A stretch of 64,000 bases of DNA from an uncultured Spirochaetaceae bacterium (GTDB taxonomy: Bacteria; Spirochaetota; Spirochaetia; DSM-27196; SLST01). A model generated the notes under the pieces. It was given only the letters and a program-made list of their open reading frames with translations, had not been told where the DNA came from and did no database searches. This document shows positions 42,808 through 54,649 of this stretch, piece by piece; positions within the stretch are counted from its first letter, which is position 1, and each line of letters opens with the position of its first letter. The translations under genes were made by a program, and so were the position numbers. The DNA lies in the NCBI GenBank assembly GCA_964458555.1, contig CAYWJH010000007.1:328-64327 (forward strand), read 5' to 3'.

Positions 42808-43572
42808 TCAAGCCTGTCCCGCCAGCGACGCAGCCTGCTCGCGGAGCGCTCCGCTCAGCGCCTCGGGCGTGTCGTCGGCGTGCGCGGCGACGGTGCGCAC
42901 GAAGGCGCTGCCCACGACCGCCGCGTGCACGTGCGGCTCGAGCGCGACGATCTGATCGCGCTCGGAGATGCCGAAGCCGGCCATCACCTTCGCTCCGGTC
43001 GTTCGCAGGCGGTCGAGGACGCGGGTGTTCTCTTCGCCTATCTCGGTGCGCTCGCCGGTGATCCCGCGGCGTAGCGCGACGTAGACGTACTCCGGCTTGC
43101 GGTCGGTGATGAGCCCGATCCGCTCCTCGCGCGCGGTCGTCACGGTGACCGGCATCACGCGCGTTCCCAGCTTCTCCGCCGCGGTCCACGTGCCCTCGTC
43201 GTAGTCGAGCGGCACGTCCGGCAGGATGAAGCCGGCCGCCCCCGCCTCGACGCCGGCCCTCATGAACGCCTCCACGCCGCGCGCGTAGAGCAGGCTCGCG
43301 TAGGTCATGAGGAAGATAGGCACGTCGCGACCGGCTTCCCGCGCGATCGCGGCGACGTCTGACACGAATCGGAATCCTTCGGCGACGGTGAACCCGGCCT
43401 CGAGCGCGTGGTGGCACGCCTGTTGGATCGTCGGGCCGTCGGCGGTGGGGTCCGAGAAGGGGAACTGCACCTCCAGGTACGCGGCGCCGCCTTCCACGAG
43501 CCCGCGCGCCACCGCGAGCGCGCGCCGGGGATCGGGGTAGTGCGAGACCAGGTGCGCCATGATCCGGCTCAT
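42808..43572 (-). CDS. trpA: Tryptophan synthase alpha chain
   Basis: EVQFPFSDPTADGPTIQ, GFGIS, VVGSA. Confidence 0.95.
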   Translation of the reverse strand: MSRIMAHLVSHYPDPRRALAVARGLVEGGAAYLEVQFPFSDPTADGPTIQQACHHALEAGFTVAEGFRFVSDVAAIAREAGRDVPIFLMTYASLLYARGVEAFMRAGVEAGAAGFILPDVPLDYDEGTWTAAEKLGTRVMPVTVTTAREERIGLITDRKPEYVYVALRRGITGERTEIGEENTRVLDRLRTTGAKVMAGFGISERDQIVALEPHVHAAVVGSAFVRTVAAHADDTPEALSGALREQAASLAGQA

Positions 43573-44801
43573 CGTTCTACCTCCGTACGCAGGAATTCGC
43601 GCCAGCGCTCGCCGTCGAGCTCGCGCGCGGTGATGAAGAGGTCCTTGTCGCCGCGGCCGGACATGTTGACGACGATCGCCTTCTCCGGCGGCAGCTCGCG
43701 CGCGAGCTTGATCGCCTCCGCCGCGCCGTGCGCGCTCTCGAGCGCGAAGACGATCCCCTCGTTGCGCGCGAAGAACTGCAGCGCCTCGAGCGCGTCGCGG
43801 TCGGTGGCGCGCGCGAACTCCACGCGTCCGGCGGTGCCGAGCGAGGCGAGCTGCGGTCCTATGCCCGGGTAGTCGAGCCCGGCGGAGACCGAGTGCGTGT
43901 CCTGCACCTGGCCGTCGTCGTCGAGCAGGAAGAGACTCTTGTAGCCCTGCACGATGCCCGGCCTGCCAAGCCCGCCCATGCGCGCGGCGTGGTCGCCGGC
44001 GCGCGTGCTGCGGCCGCCCGCCTCCACGCCGACAAGCCGTGGCCCCTCGTCTTCCAGAAACGGAGCGAAGAAGCCGATCGCGTTGCTCCCGCCGCCCACG
44101 CACGCGACGAGCGCCTCGAGCTCGAGCCCGCGCGCGTCGATCATCGCCTTCGCCTGCGCCTGCGTCTCGCGCCCCACGATCGACTGGAACTCGCGCACCA
44201 TGTCCGGGTAGGGGCTCGGCCCGAGCGCGGAGCCGATGATGTAGTGCGTCTCGTCGAAGCTCGCCGCCCAGTCGCGCAGCGCCTCGTTGACCGCGTCCTT
44301 GAGCGTGCGCTGGCCGCTCGCCACCGGCTGCACCTTCGCGCCGAAGAGCTCCATCCAGTAGACGTTGGGCTTCTGCCGCGCCACGTCCACCTCGCCCATG
44401 TACACCGTACAGGGAAATCCCATCTTCGCGCAGACCGCCGCGGTCGCGAAGCCGTGTTGCCCGGCTCCGGTCTCCGCGATGATCCGCTTCTTGCCCATCC
44501 GCTTCGCGAGCAGCACCTGCCCCACCGCGTTGTTGATCTTGTGGGCGCCGGTGTTCGCGAGCCCCTCGAGCTTCACGAAGACCTTCGCGCCCCCCAGCTC
44601 GCGCGAGCTGTTCTCCGCGTAGAGAAGCGGCGTGGGCCTGCCCACGTACGTCGTCGCGATCTCGTTGAACTCATCGTGGAAACTCTCGTCGGCCATCGCC
44701 TCCACGAACGCCGCCTCGAGCTCGTCGAGCGGCGTGCGCAGGACCTCGGCGACGTACCGCCCGCCGAACTCGCCAAAGTAGTCGTTGTAGATCTTCGTCA
44801 T
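43569..44801 (-). CDS. trpB: Tryptophan synthase beta chain
   Basis: FGEFGGRY, GAHKINN PLP lysine, ETGAGQHG, GLDYPGIGP, SGRGDKD. Confidence 0.97.
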   Translation of the reverse strand: MTKIYNDYFGEFGGRYVAEVLRTPLDELEAAFVEAMADESFHDEFNEIATTYVGRPTPLLYAENSSRELGGAKVFVKLEGLANTGAHKINNAVGQVLLAKRMGKKRIIAETGAGQHGFATAAVCAKMGFPCTVYMGEVDVARQKPNVYWMELFGAKVQPVASGQRTLKDAVNEALRDWAASFDETHYIIGSALGPSPYPDMVREFQSIVGRETQAQAKAMIDARGLELEALVACVGGGSNAIGFFAPFLEDEGPRLVGVEAGGRSTRAGDHAARMGGLGRPGIVQGYKSLFLLDDDGQVQDTHSVSAGLDYPGIGPQLASLGTAGRVEFARATDRDALEALQFFARNEGIVFALESAHGAAEAIKLARELPPEKAIVVNMSGRGDKDLFITARELDGERWREFLRTEVER

Positions 44802-46243
44802 GTGATGAGCTCCTCGAAGAAGCGGCGCAGCTTCTCCTCGTCCTTGCGTCCCGGCCCCGCCTCGAGCTTGCTCGAGACGTCGACGAGCTCGGGCGCGTAG
44901 TCGGCCACCACCCGCGCGATGTTCTCGTGCGAGAGCCCGCCGGCGAGCCACAGCGGCCCGCGCTCGCGCACCGCGGCGATCGTCTCCGGTGACAGCCGCT
45001 TCCCGCTCCCGCCGTACGCCGTGCTGTCGCGCGCGTCCACGAGGATCCTCGGAGACCGATATCGCTCGAGCGCATCCGCGGCCTCCGGCCGATCGAGGCG
45101 CAGCGCCTTGTAGTACGGAAAGGCCTGCGCCGCGCACTCGTCCGGCTCCTCGTCGCCGTGAAACTGCACCGCGTCGAGGAACCCTTCCTCGAGAAGCGCG
45201 CGCACCTCCGGCGCGAGCGGCCCGTGCGCGCCGCCGGTCACGACGACCGCGACCTTGAGCGCCGGCAGGTCCGCGAGGTCGCCGACGATCGCAGGGTCGG
45301 CGCGGCGCGGCGAGTCGGCGAAGACGAAACCGAGCAGCTCGGCGCCGAGCTCGACCGCGAGCTCGGCGTCGTGTCGATTGGTGATCCCGCAGATCTTGAC
45401 AAGCGGTCGGTCGGCGCGCATCCGCGCGGTGAGCCGGCGCCAGAAGTCGGGGGCGGTCGCGCGCGCGGGGTCCCCGTCCGCCGACGGCTGCCCGCGCAGC
45501 CCGGCGAGGATCCCGCCAATCGCGTCCTGGTCTCGCACGGCGGCCTCGCCCACGAGCAGCCCGTCGAACCCGCTCGACGAGACGAGCAGCGCGTCCTCGC
45601 GCGTAAACACCCCGCTCTCGAAGACCGCGCGGTGATCCCAGTCTATCTTCGCGCGCAGCCGGACCGGCGTCAGCAGGTCGACGCGAAAGGTCGACAGGTC
45701 GCGCGCGTTGATGCCCACAAGCGGCGGCGCGACCGCGCGCGCCTTCTCGAAATCGTCGTCCTCGTGGAGCTCGACGAGCGCCGCCATTCCCAACTCGCCC
45801 GCGCGCGCGTGCATCCGGGCAAGCTCGTCCGCGTCGAGGACCGAGGCGATGAGCAGCACCGCGTCCGCGCCGGCGCGGTAGCTCACCTCCACGTCCTCCT
45901 CGTCGACGAGGAAGTCCTTGCGCAGCACCGCGAGGTTCGGATGCGCGCGCTTCACGGCCATGAGGTCGTCGAGCGAGCCCGCGAAGTGCTCTTCTTCGGT
46001 GAGGATGGAGACCGACCGCACCCCCCGGTCGACGTAGCGGCCGGCGAGCTCGACCGGGTCGAGCCCGGCGTCGATCGCGCCGCGCGACGGGCTCTTCCGC
46101 TTGATCTCGCAGACGAGGCGCGGCGCGCGCAGGAAGCGCACGAGCGGCGCGGTGCGCTCGGGAGCGACGTCGGCGCCGAGCGTGTGGCCCTCGGCGGCGA
46201 TGCGTCCTCGGCGCCGGGTGACGATCTCGTCGCGGATGTTCAC
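44798..46243 (-). CDS. trpCF: Bifunctional indole-3-glycerol-phosphate synthase / PRA isomerase
   Basis: TrpC part: EIKRKSPSRG, LRKDF, GINARDL; TrpF part: VKICGIT, VQFHG, LAGGL, DVSS. Confidence 0.93.
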   Translation of the reverse strand: MNIRDEIVTRRRGRIAAEGHTLGADVAPERTAPLVRFLRAPRLVCEIKRKSPSRGAIDAGLDPVELAGRYVDRGVRSVSILTEEEHFAGSLDDLMAVKRAHPNLAVLRKDFLVDEEDVEVSYRAGADAVLLIASVLDADELARMHARAGELGMAALVELHEDDDFEKARAVAPPLVGINARDLSTFRVDLLTPVRLRAKIDWDHRAVFESGVFTREDALLVSSSGFDGLLVGEAAVRDQDAIGGILAGLRGQPSADGDPARATAPDFWRRLTARMRADRPLVKICGITNRHDAELAVELGAELLGFVFADSPRRADPAIVGDLADLPALKVAVVVTGGAHGPLAPEVRALLEEGFLDAVQFHGDEEPDECAAQAFPYYKALRLDRPEAADALERYRSPRILVDARDSTAYGGSGKRLSPETIAAVRERGPLWLAGGLSHENIARVVADYAPELVDVSSKLEAGPGRKDEEKLRRFFEELIT

Positions 46244-47870
46244 GCCGCGCCCTCCGCGGCGGCGCGCGCCGCGCGCTCGGCGAGTTGCTGCGAGGCGGCG
46301 ACGATGCGATCCACGTAGGCGGCGAGCGTCCCGTCGTCGATAGCCGCGCGCACCTTCGCCGCGCCGGCGGCGATGTCGTCCACGACGCCGTAGACGGCGA
46401 GCGCGGCGGCGGCGTTCAGCACGACCGCGTCGCGGACGGCGGCCGGGCCCCCGCCGGCGAGGATCTCCTTCGCGACGGCCGCGTTGTCGGCGGCGTCTCC
46501 TCCGGCGAGGTCTGCCATCGTGTGGCCGCTCACGCCGAAGTCGGCCGGATCGATCACCGCCTCGTGCATGTCACCGGCCTCGTCGATCGTCACAGAGCGC
46601 GTGCGGTCGCTCACCGAGATCTCGTCGATCCCGTCGAGCCCGTGGACGACCATGGCCTTGCGGATACCGAGCATGTGCGCGGCCTCCGCGACGATGGGCA
46701 CGAACTCTTCGGCGTAGACGCCGATGAGCTGGTACGCAGCGCCGGCCGGGTTCACGAGCGGACCTAAGAGGTTCATGATCGTCTTCACGCCCAGCTCGCG
46801 GCGGGGAACCGCGGCGTGGCGCATCGCGCCGTGGTAGAGCGGCGCGAAGAGGAAGCCAAAGCCGTGCTCGCGGATGAGCTGCTCGGTATACGCCGGCGGG
46901 AGGTCGATCGCGATGCCGAGCGCGCGGTAGAAGTCGGCGCTGCCGGACTTCGAGCTCACCGCGCGGTTGCCGTGCTTCGCGACCGTCGCGCCGCAGGCGG
47001 CGGCGGCGAGCGCGGAGAGCGAGCTGATGTTGAAGGTGCCCAGCCCGTCGCCGCCGGTCCCGCACGTGTCGAGCACCGGCCGGTCGATCGTCACCGGCGT
47101 GCGTTTTCGCTGGAGCACCGACGCGCACCCGGCGATCTCCGCGGGGAGCGGGCCGCGCGATGCGATCGCCACGAGAAAGCCGGCGACCTGCGCGGGGGTG
47201 AGGTTGCCCTCGGTGAGCTCCTCCATGAAGTTCGCCGCCTCCTCGCGCGAGAGCGTCGCGCCCTCGAGCAGCGAGGTGAGCACCACCTTGGAGACGAAGG
47301 GCTCGCGCCGGTAGTTCAGGAAGTTGCGAAGCAGCCGCTTGCCCGCGTCGCTCGCGATGCTCTCCGGGTGGAACTGGACGCCCTCCACCACGTGCTGCGT
47401 GTGGCGGATGCCCATGATCTCGCCGTCTTCGCTCGTCGCGGTGACCTCAAAGCCGTCGGGGACGGTCGCCTCGTCGACGGCGAGCGAGTGGTAGCGCGTG
47501 AACAGCGACGGCGTGGGGATCGAGCGGAAGAGGCCGCGTCCATCGGTCCCGATCCACTCGGCCTTCCCGTGCACGATGCGCTTCGCCTGCACGATCCGTG
47601 CGCCGAAGGCGTAGCCGATCGCCTGGTGTCCGAGGCAGACTCCCAGGATAGGGATGCGGCCGGTGAACTCCTGAATCGCCTGGACCGATACGCCGGCTTC
47701 TTCCGGCCTGCCCGGACCCGGCGAGATCACGAGCTTCGACGGCTCGAGCGCGCGCAGCCCGTCGATGGTGATGCGGTCGTTGCGGATCACGCGGACCTCT
47801 TCGCTCGTGAGCTCGCTCAGGTACTGGAAGAGATTGTGCGTGAACGAATCGTAGTTGTCGATGAGAACGA

Positions 47871-47874
<4 letters not shown>
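46240..47874 (-). CDS. trpGD: Bifunctional anthranilate synthase component II / anthranilate phosphoribosyltransferase
   Basis: TrpG part: IDNYDSFT, SPGPG, GVCLGHQ, RYHSL, QFHPES; TrpD part: DTCGTGGDG, KHGNR..SSKSGSAD, NLLGPL.NP. Confidence 0.95.
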
Positions 47875-49277
<1,403 letters not shown>

Positions 49278-49305
49278 GCGTCCTCCTTGCGGCGCCCCCC
49301 GGTCT

Positions 49306-49334
49306 CACCCACGGGCCCGGCACCCACGGGCCCG
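49306..49334. repeat. Tandem 14-bp direct repeat
   Basis: cacccacgggcccg at 49306-49319 and 49321-49334. Confidence 0.85.
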
Positions 49335-49340
49335 ACCCAC

Positions 49341-49367
49341 AAAAAAAGCCGCGCTTGCGCGCGGCTT
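49341..49367 (-). terminator. trp attenuator intrinsic terminator
   Basis: Minus strand AAGCCGCGC-GCAA-GCGCGGCTT followed by a T run (7 T in total), upstream of trpE. Confidence 0.9.
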
Positions 49368-49432
49368 CTTCTCGCTGCCGCGACGACCAGGATCTCTCTC
49401 AGGTCGGCGGCATACCGGTACCGGGACCTGAG

Positions 49433-49483
49433 TCAGGTCCACCACCAGTTCATGCTGATCTGTCGTACGACAGGGGTAATCAT
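49433..49483 (-). CDS. trpL: trp operon leader peptide MITPVVRQISMNWWWT (16 aa)
   Basis: Three tandem TGG codons just before the stop, upstream of the terminator and trpE; too short for the ORF track. An internal ATG at 49453 would give MNWWWT. Confidence 0.85.
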   Translation of the reverse strand: MITPVVRQISMNWWWT

Positions 49484-49490
49484 TGCTGGA

Positions 49491-49519
49491 ACCTTACCGG
49501 TTTGGACGGGTTGCGTCAA
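49491..49519 (-). promoter_or_regulatory. Sigma70-type trp promoter
   Basis: TTGACG-N17-TAAGGT, ending 7 nt before the leader ATG. Confidence 0.75.
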
Positions 49520-49545: not shown

Positions 49546-49947
49546 TCACGCGGTCCAGTCTTCCACCGCGAGGCCGGGCACCCGCCCGAACTCTGACGTG
49601 TTATGGGTGACGAGCGTGCATTCGCACGCGCGGGCAATCGCGGCGATGACGAGGTCGTTCGGTCCGATCGGCGTGCCCAGACGCTCGAGCCCGGCCCGGA
49701 TGTCCGCGTAGTGGTCGGCCTCGATGCTCCCAAAACCCACGAGCGAGAACGGTTGAAGAAACTGCCGGAGCACACGCAGGTTCTCTTCGAGTCGGTCGCT
49801 CTTGTACGCTCCGTAGAGCAACTCCGCCTTTACGAGCGCAGGAACACCGATCTCAGTGGGGCGCATCGCAAGAACATGCCGGCGCACCGCGGGGGAAACA
49901 CCCTTGAGATAGTCGATGCACGTGTTCGTGTCGAGGAGATAGGTCAC
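49546..49947 (-). CDS. vapC: PIN-domain toxin (VapC)
   Basis: YLLDTNTC, ELLYGA, IGPNDLVIAAIA, LVTHN..EF.RV.GL. Confidence 0.93.
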   Translation of the reverse strand: MTYLLDTNTCIDYLKGVSPAVRRHVLAMRPTEIGVPALVKAELLYGAYKSDRLEENLRVLRQFLQPFSLVGFGSIEADHYADIRAGLERLGTPIGPNDLVIAAIARACECTLVTHNTSEFGRVPGLAVEDWTA

Positions 49948-50168
49948 AGCTGGTCGCGGGGTACGTCATCGGCGGACGCGTCGTCGACGCCAAACGTATC
50001 GTCGTCAATCGCACCGAAGAGGTCGCCGAAATGGGCCGGCCATTCGTCTTCCATCGACGAACGAAGCTTCCTGGCAACGTACTTGGAGAGCGATACGCCT
50101 TCCGTCGTCGCCGCAAGCTCGATGCGCCGAAGCGTTGTCTCGTCGAGATACAATGACACCTGCGGCAT
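49944..50168 (-). CDS. Antitoxin (RHH/CopG-like, VapB type)
   Basis: MPQVSLYLD RHH start, acidic tail, ATGA-type overlap with vapC; GGAGG SD. Confidence 0.82.
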   Translation of the reverse strand: MPQVSLYLDETTLRRIELAATTEGVSLSKYVARKLRSSMEDEWPAHFGDLFGAIDDDTFGVDDASADDVPRDQL

Positions 50169-50211
50169 ATTCTCCTCCTATGTTATATAATATACTTGCA
50201 ATACCACGCCG

Positions 50212-50283
50212 TCAAACTACTTTGGCAGCCATCACTCTTCGAGAATCCGATCCAGCGACCAGTTCCCGGACTCGCTCCTTCAC
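50212..50283 (-). pseudogene. Putative 5' remnant of an AbiEii-type nucleotidyltransferase toxin
   Basis: GTG overlaps the AbiEi stop (GTGA) and reads MKERVRELVAGS... for only 23 codons. Confidence 0.45.
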
Positions 50284-50912
50284 GTCGTGCCTCTCTTGTC
50301 CTCATCGCCGATGTGCTCGTCGAGCAGCCGGATCGTCCGCTGCAGCCGCGGGGCACGGAATCGCTCTGCCATCTCGGCCATCGTCCGCATATCCAGCCGA
50401 TCGGTCTCCTGCAGTCGCAACTCAGAGACATAGGCCGGATCCTCACTTCCGGGGGTCAGGTAGAACAGGTCGAGCAGCGCCTTTTCGGGTCTCGCGATGT
50501 GCGCCTCCTGCTTTCCCGAGGTTTCCTGCGTGTAGCCGAAGAACACTTCGCGTTTCACATGTCGATATACGATTCGTCCGACGGGTGACTCGATGGTAGA
50601 CGGCCTGCCGGTCGTGACGCACGTCGTTTCGGCCACGTACTCCGGGATCATGCCGAAATGCGCGAGCGCCGACTGAAGACTCACGTAGCTCCCCCGCTTG
50701 ATCGTCGACGCGACGACGTTCAGGTCGAGTCGCACGCGCCTGAACGGTTCGCGAAGCGTATACCATCCCTTGTGAATGCGGATGAGCCGCCCCCTGGCCA
50801 CCCAACGGCTGAGCTGGACTCGAACCACGCTGATGTCCTGCCCTGCGGTGATCATTCCAGCGGAGAAGCAGTGAAGATCCGAAGCGATCTCGACGAGCCG
50901 ATCAAACTCCAT
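50280..50912 (-). CDS. AbiEi-like (type IV TA) antitoxin / transcriptional regulator
   Basis: QLSRWV..G.LIRI.KGWY, SYVSLQSALAHFGMIPE, TCVTT, ARPEKALLD; promoter TTGCGC-N17-TAAGAT 6 nt upstream. Confidence 0.85.
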   Translation of the reverse strand: MEFDRLVEIASDLHCFSAGMITAGQDISVVRVQLSRWVARGRLIRIHKGWYTLREPFRRVRLDLNVVASTIKRGSYVSLQSALAHFGMIPEYVAETTCVTTGRPSTIESPVGRIVYRHVKREVFFGYTQETSGKQEAHIARPEKALLDLFYLTPGSEDPAYVSELRLQETDRLDMRTMAEMAERFRAPRLQRTIRLLDEHIGDEDKRGTT

Positions 50913-50995
50913 TGCAATATCTTAACAAGAATGGCAAAATGGCGCAACCTAATGCTCGGCGAACATCGTCTCGCGCCGCAGCCTCGTTCCGATTA

Positions 50996-51047
50996 TGCGG
51001 AGTGCCGCTCCGCAAAATAGGCCGATTCTGCGGAGTTTTGCTCCGCA
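50996..51047. promoter_or_regulatory. Pair of identical-arm palindromes TGCGGAG-N5-CTCCGCA
   Basis: Sites at 50996-51014 and 51029-51047, 33 bp apart, in the divergent AbiEi / AAA ATPase intergenic region. Confidence 0.8.
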
Positions 51048-51084
51048 TTCTTGCCGTATCCCGTGGATCGTGCTACCGTGAGAC

Positions 51085-52227
51085 GTGTATGTTCCACGCG
51101 CATGCGAGCCGCTTTCGGCGGCCATCAGCCCGGACAAGGTGCTGGTGATTCTCGGACCGCGGCAGGTCGGAAAGACGACGATGGTTCGCAGCTTCATGGG
51201 CCAGGAGAGCGGGCGAGCGCTCTTCGTGCACGGCGACGATGTCCGTGCCCAGACCAACTGGGGTTCGAACGACCTCGAGCTCCTGCTCCGCATGGTCGAG
51301 GGCTACGATGTCGCGGTGATCGATGAGGCCCAGCGCATTCCGTCCATCGGCGTGTCGCTGAAGCTGCTTATCGACGCCGGCGCCGGAGTCAAACTGATCG
51401 CAACCGGGTCGTCGGCCTTCGAGGCGGCCGGGCAGGTCGGCGAGCCGCTGACGGGCCGCAAACGCACCCTGACACTTCTTCCGCTTTCACAGGTCGAGCT
51501 CAGGACAATCTGGAATCGTTTCGAGCTCACCGAGAAGCTGGACGAGTTCCTCGTCTACGGCTCGTATCCGGAGGTCATCACGGCGGCGAGTCGCGAGGAG
51601 AAGCGCGCCATACTCCAGGAGATAACCGGATCGTACCTCTTGAAGGACATCCTCGAGCTCGACCGGGTGCGAAGCTCGAAGGTTCTGCTGGATCTGCTTC
51701 GTCTCGTCGCCTTTCAGGTAGGCTCCGAGGTCTCTCATCGCGAGCTCGCCACGCAGATCGGTCTGGACGGCAAGACGGTTGGCCGGTATCTCGATCTGCT
51801 CGAGAAGGGATACGTCCTGTACAACGTCCGGGGATTCAGCCGCAACCTGCGGAAGGAAGTCACCAAAAAGAGCAAGTACTATTTCTACGACACGGGCATC
51901 CGAAACGCCGTGATCGCCAACTTCAACGAGCTACCCGACCGCGACGACCGCGGAGCCCTGTGGGAAAACTTCATCTTCGTCGAGCGCCTGAAGCGGCTCA
52001 CCTACGCCGGAGGAGCTGCGAAGACGTACTTCTGGCGAACGTGGGACGGTCAGGAGATCGACATGGTCGAAGAGCGTGGAGGGCGAATCTCCGCGTACGA
52101 GATGAAGCAGCGCCGCAAGGCCCGCTCATCCGCACCAACCGCATGGAAGGAAGCCTACCCGGACGCGACGTACACGGTGATCACGCCGGAGAACTACCTG
52201 GAGTTCGTGCTCGGCGACGACGGGTAG
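51085..52227 (+). CDS. AAA_14 ATPase with C-terminal DUF4143 domain
   Basis: GPRQVGKTT, IDEAQ, ATGSS, GEPLTGR, YGSYP, KYYFYDTGIRNA, LWENF, YFWRT..GQEID...EMK; promoter TTGCCG-N17-TACCGT. Confidence 0.92.
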   Translation: MYVPRACEPLSAAISPDKVLVILGPRQVGKTTMVRSFMGQESGRALFVHGDDVRAQTNWGSNDLELLLRMVEGYDVAVIDEAQRIPSIGVSLKLLIDAGAGVKLIATGSSAFEAAGQVGEPLTGRKRTLTLLPLSQVELRTIWNRFELTEKLDEFLVYGSYPEVITAASREEKRAILQEITGSYLLKDILELDRVRSSKVLLDLLRLVAFQVGSEVSHRELATQIGLDGKTVGRYLDLLEKGYVLYNVRGFSRNLRKEVTKKSKYYFYDTGIRNAVIANFNELPDRDDRGALWENFIFVERLKRLTYAGGAAKTYFWRTWDGQEIDMVEERGGRISAYEMKQRRKARSSAPTAWKEAYPDATYTVITPENYLEFVLGDDG

Positions 52228-52274
52228 CTCAGCGGTCGGCTGTGTGGGACATGGTTCCGCCTCAGGCAAGGATC

Positions 52275-52412
52275 TGCCGCTACGTGCAGCTCAAGACGAT
52301 CCAGAGAACGGGTCGAGCGGATGGTGTTCAGTTGGCGGGTCAGATCAAGCTCCCGATCAATGAAGCCGAATTCACTACGGATACGCGAGCGAACGGTTTC
52401 GCTATCCGACAC
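52275..52412 (-). pseudogene. Truncated HEPN (HepT-like) toxin 5' fragment
   Basis: GTG overlaps the MNT gene end; helical N-terminus to ...LDRLELHVAA, then similarity is lost and no RX4H motif follows. Confidence 0.55.
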
Positions 52413-52701
52413 GCACAAGCTCTGCGTGGGTTCTGACGTCGCGGGAAACGTCGTTGTCGTAGTCGAGGCCGATAAGGTCAAACGGGAGCTGAAGTTCCAT
52501 CAACAGTTCGCCATACGCCGCGAAAAAGCGATTCTTTGGCAAGCCCACTGCCGCAATGTCGATATCGGACTCGGATCGTGCAGTGCCTGAAGCATAGGAA
52601 CCAAAGAGATAGACCTCAGTCGCGCCGTACCTCTTGAGGATCGCCGTCGCCTTACTGAGGTCCTGCTCGACAATCGGTGATAGAGACCCCGGTGTTCCCA
52701 T
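52402..52701 (-). CDS. Minimal nucleotidyltransferase (MNT) antitoxin
   Basis: VYLFGSYASGTARSESDIDIAA (GS...DxD), FDLIGLD. Confidence 0.88.
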   Translation of the reverse strand: MGTPGSLSPIVEQDLSKATAILKRYGATEVYLFGSYASGTARSESDIDIAAVGLPKNRFFAAYGELLMELQLPFDLIGLDYDNDVSRDVRTHAELVRVG

Positions 52702-52738
52702 GCCACAAGTCTACTCACGATTCAGTTCGACAACAACC

Positions 52739-52828
52739 TGGCAAAATGCCTGCTCTGAGGCGACCTACACCGTGAGCACGCGGCACGAGTGCCTAAACTG
52801 CGTACTCCGCGACGACGGATAGCTCAGC
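52739..52828 (+). pseudogene. Degenerate copy of the 3' end of the DUF4143 ATPase gene
   Basis: WQNACSEATYTVSTRHECLNCVLRDDG* aligns with WKEAYPDATYTVITPENYLEFVLGDDG*; both stops are followed by ctcagc. Confidence 0.75.
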
Positions 52829-53159
52829 CGCGGCCTCGCTCGACTCGCGTCACGCGCCTCAGAAGGACGTTCTGGACGTCACGGCGGCCGTCGATGATGG
52901 CCACAACGAAGGTGACATCCTGATCGGTCTGGTAGAACAGGCGCCACGGTGAGAGGACGATCTCCCGATAGCGTGTCACGCCGTAGCGCGCAAGTTCGGG
53001 TACCACGCGTCCGCTGTCCGGATGGGTCTCGAGCCGCTGGACTGCCGTGTCCACGCGCTCGACGAGCGTGGTCGCAGCCTGCGGTGACTCGATCCCAAGG
53101 AACGACACGAGCTCTCGAAGGTCCTCGGCCGCCACCGAAGCCCAGCGGACGGGTCTCAC
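52824..53159 (-). CDS. RelE/ParE family toxin
   Basis: VRW...A.EDL, HPDSGRVVPEL, WRLFY, IIDGRRD; GTGA coupling to the antitoxin. Confidence 0.9.
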   Translation of the reverse strand: MRPVRWASVAAEDLRELVSFLGIESPQAATTLVERVDTAVQRLETHPDSGRVVPELARYGVTRYREIVLSPWRLFYQTDQDVTFVVAIIDGRRDVQNVLLRRVTRVERGRG

Positions 53160-53431
53160 TGGCTGTGGATCGACTTCATCGCACCCGCGATCGCTTCGTC
53201 GTGGGTCACGGTCTTCCCTTCGTCTATCTCGCGCTCCGCCTGGGCAACGAGCTTCAGCAGCCCGATCGCATCGACCATCTCCTGGTACGAGGCGGTATCC
53301 AGCAACACGCCTCTGGCGTGGCCGTTCTGAGTGATCACGATCGGGTTTCGGCTGTCGTTCACGCGCTTGAGCATCTCTGCTGCGTGCGTCTTTACGTAGG
53401 AAATGGGGCGGATCGACTCGTCGAGTTTCAT
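53156..53431 (-). CDS. Phd/YefM family antitoxin
   Basis: IRPISYVKTHA, PIVITQNG.A.GVL. Confidence 0.92.
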   Translation of the reverse strand: MKLDESIRPISYVKTHAAEMLKRVNDSRNPIVITQNGHARGVLLDTASYQEMVDAIGLLKLVAQAEREIDEGKTVTHDEAIAGAMKSIHSQ

Positions 53432-53467
53432 GGTGACCTCAGTCCGGATAAAGTATCATTTTCGGAC

Positions 53468-53869
53468 TCATCGCGCAAGAATCAGCCCGAATCGCGCGTA
53501 CTCGTCGAACCGTGAGTCCGACGAAAGCATCGCGAATCCTGCCTGGATGCACTGCAAGATCAGCAGGCGGTCGAAGGGATCCCGATGATCGGTGACCACC
53601 GGCAGCCGGTGCGATCCCGCCGCGACTTCGGCGTCGAGCGGGAGTACGTGGAAGCCGGACGCAACGGCCGCGGGCAGCGTCTGCTCGGGCGTGATGCCGC
53701 CCAACTCAAGCTTGCCAAGGGCGTACTTCAGCGAGATTTCCCAGTAGCTCACCGCGCTCGTGTACTTGACGTCATCGTTGTTCTCAACGACCTCTCGAGC
53801 GCGTCGGTCGAGTCGATCGGGGTCAACGAGCGTCCACAGGAGGCAGTGGGTATCGACCAGGACGTTCAC
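53468..53869 (-). CDS. vapC: PIN-domain toxin (VapC)
   Basis: LVDTHCLLW, SAVSYWEI..K..LGKL, HRDPFDRLLI.Q, LSSD. Confidence 0.92.
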   Translation of the reverse strand: MNVLVDTHCLLWTLVDPDRLDRRAREVVENNDDVKYTSAVSYWEISLKYALGKLELGGITPEQTLPAAVASGFHVLPLDAEVAAGSHRLPVVTDHRDPFDRLLILQCIQAGFAMLSSDSRFDEYARFGLILAR

Positions 53870-54105
53870 GGTTCAACGAGCTCCTCACCGGTCATTTCGA
53901 AGTCGTCCATGAACCGCACCGAACCACGCCCGGCGAGAGCACCTGTCGCCACGGCGTGCCGCGAACGGTATGACGAATACGGAACCAGCACCGCCACGGG
54001 CTCCTTGCTCCGGCCGTAGGAGATCACGACCTCCTCGCCGTGCTTGACGAGGTCGATCACCTCAGAGAACCGTGCCTTGAAGTCGCCTACGGGCATGGTC
54101 TTCAT
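53866..54105 (-). CDS. Phd/YefM family antitoxin
   Basis: GDFKARFSEV...GEEVVI...PVAVLVPY. Confidence 0.9.
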   Translation of the reverse strand: MKTMPVGDFKARFSEVIDLVKHGEEVVISYGRSKEPVAVLVPYSSYRSRHAVATGALAGRGSVRFMDDFEMTGEELVEP

Positions 54106-54113
54106 TGTCCACA

Positions 54114-54149
54114 ATGATAGCTGTTGCATCGTTACTTGTCAACTTGACA
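54114..54149 (-). promoter_or_regulatory. Promoter and operator of the phd-vapC pair
   Basis: TTGACA-N17-TATCAT, 8 nt before the ATG; the -35 is one arm of the palindrome TGTCAA-C-TTGACA (54137-54149). Confidence 0.75.
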
Positions 54150-54232
54150 TGCGGAGCCCTCGGTACGCTTCGCCGGCGTCCCGAATATCAGCCGATGGGC
54201 GGTCGCCCGCCCACCGGCCCCATCGGTCGCGT

Positions 54233-54649
54233 CTAGAAAACGGGTACAGCCTCCTTCTTCTCGGCTTCGGCGGTTTCGCCCTTTTCGGCCGGCAGATCCG
54301 CCTGCGCCTCGACGCGCTTGTTCCACTGCGGCTTGAACTCGACGTGCTCGGCGACGACCTTCACGCGCGAGCGCGGCTCGCCGTCCTTATTCTCCCAGCG
54401 GTCCTGCTTCAGCCGCCCCACCACGCGCACGCCACGGCCCTTCTCGAGCTCGTCGTTGCACCGCTCGGCGAGTCGGCTCCAGACTTCGACTTCGAAGAAG
54501 GAGACCTCCTCCTGCATCTGCTCGTCCGCGCGATAGTACCGGTTCGCCGCCACGCCGAAGTTGCACACCGGCGTCCCCTTCGGCGTCGACGCGAGCAACG
54601 GATCCCGCGTGAGGTTTCCCTCAATCAGTACCGAATTCAGATCGTTCAT
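54233..54649 (-). CDS. ssb: Single-stranded DNA-binding protein
   Basis: LNSVLIEGNLTRDP, FFEVEVW, KGRGVRVVGRLKQDRW; GGAGG SD. Confidence 0.92.
   Translation of the reverse strand: MNDLNSVLIEGNLTRDPLLASTPKGTPVCNFGVAANRYYRADEQMQEEVSFFEVEVWSRLAERCNDELEKGRGVRVVGRLKQDRWENKDGEPRSRVKVVAEHVEFKPQWNKRVEAQADLPAEKGETAEAEKKEAVPVF

Follow-up and report, generated by a model that had tools for sequence, protein, structure and literature searches.

In the his attenuator of Salmonella and E. coli, six RNA segments form either the hairpins A:B, C:D and E:F or the alternative helices B:C and D:E. The trp leader of E. coli (trpL, RF00513) consists of a short open reading frame (ORF) with tandem Trp codons towards its end, an intrinsic terminator and mutually exclusive hairpins under kinetic control. 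In S. meliloti, the 14-amino-acid leader peptide contains three consecutive Trp residues, and the trpL RNA is drawn as a classical four-segment switch. This RNA, rnTrpL, starts at the ATG of the 14-aa trpL ORF and is a leaderless attenuator of trpE(G) (PMC7298713, PMC6614838). Trans-acting roles have been shown there for both the small RNA (sRNA) and the peptide (PMC6614838, PMC7298713). By dRNA-seq, 14 leaderless leader peptides enriched in the cognate amino acid were found in D. deserti, and the transcription start site (TSS) of its trpEGD leader lies one base before the start codon, at −1 (PMC4007540). Leaderless polycysteine uORFs of mycobacteria are amino-acid-responsive attenuators (bioRxiv 10.1101/834739), and C. 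diphtheriae has a leaderless ilvB leader as well as a WWW trp leader, MTNMNAHNWWWRA (PMC5784534).

Here we describe a putative trp attenuator in a 64-kb stretch of DNA (the window) from an uncultured Spirochaetaceae bacterium and compare it with these systems. The spirochaete leader follows the relay logic of the his attenuator, with three consecutive hairpins and the alternatives B:C and, as a candidate, D:E, but the his system senses His through a leader that has seven His codons, a Shine-Dalgarno sequence and an unrelated sequence. With E. coli trpL it shares the placement of tandem Trp codons in the last part of a short ORF, the intrinsic terminator, the mutually exclusive hairpins and, as proposed here, kinetic control. 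The gene order and the trpGD and trpCF fusions are also the same as in the E. coli trp operon. E. coli trpL differs in its Shine-Dalgarno sequence and 5′ UTR, in having WW instead of WWW, in using four segments and not six, and in the additional repression by TrpR. Compared by description, S. meliloti trpL resembles the scheme proposed here for the spirochaete leader in its leaderless short Trp peptide, its ribosome-dependent choice between terminator and antiterminator and the lack of a separate repressor (PMC7298713, PMC6614838). In contrast to the locus described here, it belongs to another phylum and, within a split trp regulon, acts on trpE(G) only. The system of D. deserti likewise comes from another phylum, in an organism in which about 60% of the mRNAs are leaderless, and its leader structures are uncharacterized (PMC4007540). 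The actinobacterial attenuators differ in phylum too; the mycobacterial elements sense Cys, and for the trp leader of C. diphtheriae no TSS was found.

A complete trp operon, trpE-trpGD-trpCF-trpB-trpA, begins 63 nt downstream of the element; its gene junctions overlap, and the part following trpE spans 42808..47874 on the minus strand. We propose, with a probability of roughly three in four, that the element is a ribosome-mediated, Trp-sensing transcription attenuator of trpE-GD-CF-B-A that combines a leaderless trpL with a six-segment relay. The genes of the operon and the ribosome binding site of trpE are as follows.

49282..49288, minus strand: Shine-Dalgarno sequence of trpE, AAGGAGG, strong (motif location)
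47871..49277, minus strand: trpE, anthranilate synthase component I, 468 aa (Pfam Chorismate_bind and N-terminal domain)
46240..47874, minus strand: trpGD fusion (Pfam GATase and Glycos_transf_3)
44798..46243, minus strand: trpCF fusion (Pfam IGPS and PRAI)
43569..44801, minus strand: trpB (Pfam PALP)
42808..43572, minus strand: trpA (Pfam Trp_syntA)

All TrpE homologues with 65-95% identity that carry a source name come from Spirochaetota, among them Spirochaeta africana (67%), S. dissipatitropha (67%) and metagenome-assembled genomes (MAGs) of Alkalispirochaetaceae; the assignment to spirochaetes made in the first-pass annotation was thus correct. An identical TrpE protein is present in microbial-mat metagenomes. 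A TrpE scan of genome contigs yielded, among the matches listed, only relatives with 38-47% identity from other phyla and no spirochaete. For comparison of the leaders we used the DNA around 11 TrpE homologues, two leaders from metagenomes (L204 and L218) and the window itself, which gave 14 distinct leaders; the TrpE proteins of the 13 further leaders are 67-88% identical to that of the window. The next gene upstream is ssb in 12 of the 14 cases. An insertion of 4.7 kb has come between ssb and the leader in the window, where the leader is nevertheless still joined to trpE. The leaders are listed below with the TrpE identity and the leader peptide.

Window: MITPVVRQISMNWWWT
L086, TrpE 88%: MITTVVQTAQLNWWWT
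L204, TrpE 87%: MDGREVTMTAELNWWWT
L089, TrpE 84%: MRRTNDCTTQQDWWWA
L223, TrpE 83%: MKRSAFPAVHRISSRNWWWAS
L222, TrpE 81%: MNTVACTNSQRWWWT
L091, TrpE 80%: MTVSMFCSSRERYWWWSW
L221, TrpE 77%: MQRVAGVELQLELSTHQWWWT
L094, TrpE 77%: ...ENQQDWWWA
L224, TrpE 70%: MRNMNMHAASISLSWWWLR
L218, TrpE 69%: VNKEVHNYTTKNTLSWWWLGNRAS
L100, TrpE 70%: 39 aa, ...RRGWWRPR
L097, S. africana, TrpE 67%: MKLNQITTAIHFSGSWWPSV
L099, S. dissipatitropha, TrpE 67%: MNKNSAVIQIYFSASWWPSL

In two other loci, L142 and L146, WWW is part of a longer frame that precedes a terminator and a trpE-like gene; they were set aside as unrelated. A scan of 80 trpE loci of other phyla returned few candidates for WW leaders, for example ...GNWWWLNSDLS in L017, a deltaproteobacterial MAG. 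In metagenomes, a search for the pattern TGGTGG-N60-90-terminator placed trpE downstream at 5 of 120 loci among the matches listed, and the spirochaete leaders L204 and L218 come from these.

The leader ORF lies 155 nt upstream of the trpE start and ends with a TGA stop codon at 49435-49433.

49433..49483, minus strand: leader ORF trpL, MITPVVRQISMNWWWT*, 16 codons, coordinates with the stop codon (sequence; orthologous ORFs)
49439..49447, minus strand: TGG TGG TGG, three consecutive Trp codons (sequence)

The sequence TGGTGGTGG occurs once in the 64-kb window, compared with 0.11 occurrences expected. Conservation of the TGG run in related leaders had been suggested as a check in the first-pass annotation, and it was borne out: all 14 distinct spirochaete trpE leaders have a Trp run, WWW in 11 and WW in three. 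The orthologous leader ORFs encode 15-39 aa and carry WWW or WW 1-8 codons ahead of the stop, while the remainder of the peptide diverges freely among the 14 leaders. Because the Trp run alone is conserved, the ORF is likely to be regulatory rather than to encode a functional peptide. An internal ATG at codon 11 was considered as the true start and dropped, as it is replaced by TTG or CTG in relatives. At none of the loci examined, neither in the window nor at the homologous loci, did a gene call cover the leader ORF.

Folding of the 154-nt leader of the window gave a minimum energy of −75 kcal/mol (z = −4.5 versus dinucleotide shuffles; none of 200 shuffles was as good). The minimum-energy structure contains four hairpins, namely a small hairpin inside the ORF, P1, P2 and the terminator. 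Together with the competing helices, the RNA features are:

49460..49473, minus strand: small hairpin within the ORF, CUGUC-GUAC-GACAG, −6.2 kcal/mol (folding)
49414..49449, minus strand: P1 (A:B), −20.0 kcal/mol, with the Trp codons in the 5′ arm and the stop codon in the loop (folding)
49398..49432, minus strand: alternative hairpin B:C, CUCAGGUC (49432-49425) with GACCUGAG (49405-49398), −18.0 kcal/mol
49376..49412, minus strand: P2 (C:D), proposed anti-antiterminator, −18.7 kcal/mol (folding)
49357..49387, minus strand: candidate antiterminator D:E, core CGCGGC (49382-49377) with GCCGCG, −14.1 kcal/mol (folding)
49341..49368, minus strand: terminator E:F, GCCGCGC-GCAA-GCGCGGC (49365-49348) followed by U7 (49347-49341), −15 to −19 kcal/mol

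The pairings that had been proposed before are present, but P1 turned out to be longer, P2 has an additional inner helix, and D:E can be extended from its 6-pair core to 9 pairs with two bulges. In the outer stem of P1, ACUGGUGG, which includes the Trp codons, pairs with CCGGUACCGGU. P2 is composed of the outer helix GCCGC:GCGGC and the inner helix CGACC:GGUCG (GCCGC-CGACC with GGUCG-UC-GCGGC). Its outer helix copies the terminator stem GCCGCGC:GCGCGGC, so that D would be able to pair with either C or E. The small ORF-internal hairpin, which could be a pause hairpin, was found only in the window, L086 and L089.

The layout of P1, P2 and terminator was recovered in all 14 leaders when folding was limited to a span of 48 nt. 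On an alignment of 13 sequences, the terminated structure is paired in 83% of the positions versus 40-53% when the partners are slid by 1-3 columns. In P1, pairing amounts to 76% for the outer helix and 83% for the inner one, with three pairs changed on both sides; P2 is paired in 79% of the alignment cells. The terminator stem is GCCGCGC in 13 of the 14 leaders and GCCGUGU in L224, and each stem is followed by 7-9 U residues (14/14).

The alternative helix B:C is incompatible with both P1 and P2. Five of its seven pairs are changed on both sides, for example UA/GC/AU and CG/AU/GC, and the RNAalifold consensus consists of B:C and the terminator. The window has a B:C z-score of −3.2; among the 14 sequences, 12 have values from −1.9 to −5.6. 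The sub-sequence of B and C folds at −15 to −22 kcal/mol across the leaders. No other helix is as well supported as B:C. Of the relay postulated in the first-pass annotation, this part is thus backed by compensatory changes, but the second part, D:E, lacks covariation. Its pairing potential is kept in 87% of the cells of the 13 sequences, compared with 26-47% in slid controls; the lack of compensatory changes is due to the invariance of E. Against shuffled sequences D:E is weak (z = −0.45 in the window and −0.4 to −2.5 overall) and not significant in any single sequence.

From these structures the following mechanism can be proposed. A sigma-70-type promoter would start transcription at the ATG of the 16-codon ORF or one base earlier, and the leader would then be translated as a leaderless mRNA without a Shine-Dalgarno sequence. 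The six RNA segments would pair as A:B, C:D and E:F (P1, P2 and terminator) or, alternatively, as B:C and D:E. With ample Trp-tRNA, the first ribosome would reach the UGA in the loop of P1 and cover B; C would pair with D, leaving E free for F, and transcription would stop at U7, yielding an RNA of about 143 nt. Under Trp-tRNA shortage, the ribosome would stall with the first or second UGG in the A site, covering A and leaving B free to capture C once C is made. The unpaired D would then capture E (CGCGGC:GCCGCG) before F is synthesized, allowing read-through into trpE. Without translation, all three hairpins would form and termination would be maximal. In this scheme, we infer the position of the TSS, the ribosome geometry, the kinetic precedence of D:E over E:F and the dependence on Trp.

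The scheme was examined by folding with ribosome masks. The mask was assumed to reach 11 nt past the first base of the A-site codon, an extent in line with published toeprint and footprint distances. With this geometry, B stays free when the ribosome stalls on the first or second Trp codon (W1 or W2) and is covered when it reaches the stop codon. In transcripts ending before F, masking at W1 or W2 gave B:C together with the 9-pair D:E as the minimum-energy fold in the window, as the relay predicts. The same fold was obtained in L086, L204, L223, L221 and L094, and similar ones in L089 and L091. A mask at W3 or at the stop codon restored the inner helix of P2. The expected switch was thus confined to closer relatives of the window. 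In the more distant members S. africana, S. dissipatitropha, L218 and L100, however, P2 persists at equilibrium even when A is masked, and in the non-stalled state of the transcript ending before F the 6-pair D:E is also part of the minimum-energy fold. The mean pairing of the 5′ arm of the terminator in this transcript was 0.77 in the stalled state and 0.62 with the ribosome at the stop codon; thus, thermodynamics alone discriminates poorly between the two states. The full-length RNA at equilibrium keeps the terminator under every ribosome mask (P about 1.0 where the pairs were correctly identified; three sequences were judged from the structures), and each of the minimum-energy structures shows it. 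Since equilibrium never removes the terminator, antitermination must be kinetic and depend on the order of synthesis.

The same data could be taken to mean that the decision step is not D:E and that pause release, a Rho or RNase site or pairing of D elsewhere decides, or that the leader acts through RNA stability or in trans like rnTrpL and peTrpL. We regard this as unlikely. It would accord with a D:E helix that is statistically like shuffled sequence and with equilibrium folds that retain the terminator. Against it, the complementarity of D to the invariant E far exceeds that of the slid controls. In the E. coli trp leader, the 3:4 terminator is more stable than the 2:3 antiterminator as well. 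An action in trans has its precedent in S. meliloti, where the attenuator RNA and the peptide both act in this way (PMC6614838, PMC7298713); the conservation of the spirochaete leader peptides in the Trp run alone speaks against such a role of the peptide.

The predicted leaderless start was deduced from the position of the promoter relative to the leader ORF.

49514..49519, minus strand: −35 hexamer TTGACG (sequence; TTGACn at the same relative position in orthologous leaders)
49491..49496, minus strand: −10 hexamer TAAGGT, with a 17-nt spacer from the −35 hexamer (sequence; TAnnnT in orthologues)
49483..49484, minus strand: predicted transcription start, the A of the ATG or the A just before it (from the 7-nt gap)

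The gap between the −10 hexamer and the leader ATG at 49483 is 7 nt long (TCCAGCA). The minus-strand coordinates given earlier for promoter, gap, ATG, segments, terminator and U7 were all correct. For the orthologous leaders, the best sigma-70-like promoter of each upstream region was picked by score alone, ignoring the position of the ORF. In 12 of the 14 leaders, 6-9 nt (mostly 7 nt) lie between the end of the promoter picked in this way and the first in-frame start codon, ATG or GTG. S. africana is the 13th such leader, with a promoter of tied score, TTGACT-18-TAAGTT, that was chosen by hand. At the spacing set by the promoter, 12 leaders start with ATG and one (L218) with GTG. By our estimate, an in-frame start codon would fall within a 4-nt span by chance in a few percent of sequences, and 13 of 14 is therefore far above chance. 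The exception is the L094-L096 lineage, whose WWW frame lacks an ATG or GTG at the predicted TSS behind the −10 hexamer TACTCT; the promoter call in L094 is doubtful. A further departure in the −35 hexamer is TTGCCG in L089. As the gap mostly ends with CA, the +1 base could be that A, which would give a 1-nt leader, or the A of the ATG.

The −10 hexamers of the 13 leaders are TAAGGT, TAAGGT, TAAAGT, TATCGT, TAGTAT, TAGAGT, TACGGT, TAATCT, TACTGT, TATATT, TATTAT, TAAGTT and TATTAT. All of them fit TAnnnT, with variable inner bases and a spacing of 17-18 nt to TTGACn, and no conserved GGAGG-like Shine-Dalgarno sequence precedes the leader ORF across the 13 leaders. The claim of a leaderless start is thus sustained as far as promoter geometry can tell. 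A consensus scanner detected neither the promoter nor the terminator of the leader in the window; TAAGGT matches TATAAT in 3 of 6 positions, and the ability of the terminator stem to extend into the U-run is the probable reason why the terminator escaped detection. In spirochaetes, about 440 leaderless mRNAs are known from Leptospira interrogans (PMC5243855) and 85 from Borrelia burgdorferi (PMC5314773).

An attenuator whose leader ORF is carried on a longer, leadered transcript, arising from an upstream promoter or from read-through, with TAAGGU as a weak Shine-Dalgarno sequence 8 nt before the ATG, seems quite improbable. The AAGG of TAAGGT does lie at a workable Shine-Dalgarno distance in the window and in L086, and read-through transcripts probably exist, since there is no terminator between ssb or vapC and the leader. 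However, the hexamers of the orthologues retain TAnnnT (for example TATCGT, TAGTAT, TACTGT, TATATT and TATTAT) and vary inside, with no GGAGG core; TAAGGT was therefore dropped as a Shine-Dalgarno candidate. The constant distance of 17-18 nt from TTGACn is the signature of a promoter and not of a Shine-Dalgarno sequence. The retention of TAnnnT with variable inner bases points to a promoter element.

That a chance ORF lies beside the ordinary terminator of an upstream gene and has no regulatory role is very hard to reconcile with the conservation of the Trp run, the promoter, the position of the ORF and the alternative pairing in 14 lineages in which TrpE identity falls to as little as 67%. 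Terminators with the GC-rich pattern GCCGCGC...GCGCGGCUUUUU are indeed common, and among the matches listed for the metagenome pattern, 115 of the 120 loci have no trpE downstream, but in the window the leader stayed with trpE despite the insertion that separates ssb. In the window, no Rfam family reached its gathering score, and at E ≤ 10 neither RF00513 (Trp_leader) nor a T-box was matched; the matches at this level were terminator-driven hits to Leu_leader (27.5 and 24.1 bits, where the cut-off is 50) and matches to models of unrelated sRNAs or snoRNAs. A TRAP- or T-box-like control by protein or tRNA without a ribosome, as known for trp operons of Firmicutes, is scarcely credible given the lack of a T-box or any other Rfam family at threshold and the scarcity of (G/U)AG triplets: the 143-nt leader has four, of which three overlap within GAGAGAG, and a TRAP site has 9-11 spaced repeats.

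The first-pass annotation had regarded the relay as unusual. This view has to be given up, as the six-segment relay is the design of the his attenuator. A leaderless trp leader has likewise been described before, in S. meliloti (PMC7298713). Neither the leaderless start nor the multi-hairpin relay is thus new; what appears to be new is their occurrence in Spirochaetota. In the literature searched, of which the coverage was incomplete, we found no description of a trp attenuator in spirochaetes.

In conclusion, our findings extend classical ribosome-mediated attenuation, in a putatively leaderless form, to the Spirochaetota and imply no new mechanism. The 14 conserved leaders could seed a new RNA family and improve the annotation of spirochaete MAGs, in which gene callers overlook the leader ORF. 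The same architecture occurs in two named species, S. africana and S. dissipatitropha, so that the prediction is testable if the strains are available. Leader peptides of attenuators have often turned out to be leaderless, and Spirochaetota would be one more phylum in which this holds, which bears on the coupling of the pioneer ribosome to RNA polymerase. Tentatively, and with considerable doubt, we speculate that trpL is an independently evolved RNA family that converged on leaderless initiation and that its 143-nt RNA may act in trans like rnTrpL. If this were true, a general rule would suggest itself from the leaderless leaders seen in Alphaproteobacteria, Deinococcus, Actinobacteria and Spirochaetota: loading a 70S ribosome directly on the 5′ AUG may be a favoured means by which attenuators couple the first ribosome to the polymerase.

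In one spirochaete lineage related to that of the window, represented by L094 (at about 1870-2000), L095 and L096, whose TrpE is 77% identical to that of the window, the frame with the run of three Trp codons, the hairpins and the terminator of the trp leader are all retained. No ATG or GTG was found at the predicted leader start in any of these three loci. Their start region reads TTGACG-18-TACTCT-TTGAGCA-GGC, and the sole in-frame TTG of the leader directly adjoins the -10 element. The sequence is the same in three independent assemblies and is therefore not an assembly error.

Between the U-run of the terminator and the Shine-Dalgarno sequence of trpE, the window carries a 13-nt direct repeat, GGGCCCGTGGGTG, on the minus strand (49306-49333, two copies separated by 2 nt). 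The repeat lengthens the spacer between U-run and trpE, which is 63 nt in the window. It was not found in the more distant orthologous leaders, and in several of these leaders without the repeat trpE starts 13-25 nt past the U-run. The operon that follows (42808-49277) has the enterobacterial-type order trpE, trpGD fusion, trpCF fusion, trpB and trpA, with overlapping gene junctions and ATGA at trpCF/trpB and trpB/trpA. Both fusions are common to all spirochaete relatives examined; in one of them, L100, trpGD was called as two separate ORFs. Among the matches listed by the genome scan, the best identities of non-spirochaete TrpE proteins were 38-47%.

Of the 13 related loci, 12 have ssb as the gene next upstream of the trp leader. 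In the window, ssb (about 54335-54649) is separated from the trp promoter by an islet of ~4.7 kb (49546-54230). Type II toxin-antitoxin genes and defence-like genes are abundant in this islet, and most of its genes are on the minus strand. Its final gene is vapC, the stop of which is located 26 nt upstream of the trp -35 element.

Genes of the islet between ssb and the trp promoter (window coordinates).
53866-54129 and 53468-53869, Phd antitoxin and PIN
53156-53431 and 52824-53159, Phd and ParE
52402-52701, MNT-like nucleotidyltransferase
52194-52481, unassigned partner ORF of the MNT-like nucleotidyltransferase
51085-52227, plus strand, AAA_14/DUF4143 ATPase
50280-50912, AbiEi_4
49944-50168 and 49546-49947, VapB-like ORF and PIN

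Candidate Trp leader peptides were also seen upstream of trpE in other phyla, namely in a deltaproteobacterial MAG (L017), where the peptide ends in MNHEQRYHYISLGNWWWLNSDLS and a T-run follows 66 nt downstream, and in two Burkholderiales MAGs (L010 and L047), where it ends in SVHSWWQSFGGWWR. Among the matches listed by the metagenome pattern scan were two loci of an unrelated high-GC organism (L142 and L146), in which an extended open frame contains a Trp-Trp-Trp run (within RARWWWRTHDDR) some 150 nt ahead of the match to the pattern, with a GC-rich terminator and then a trpE-like gene (46% identity) downstream. This run may form the C-terminal end of a protein encoded upstream, or else belong to another kind of Trp leader.
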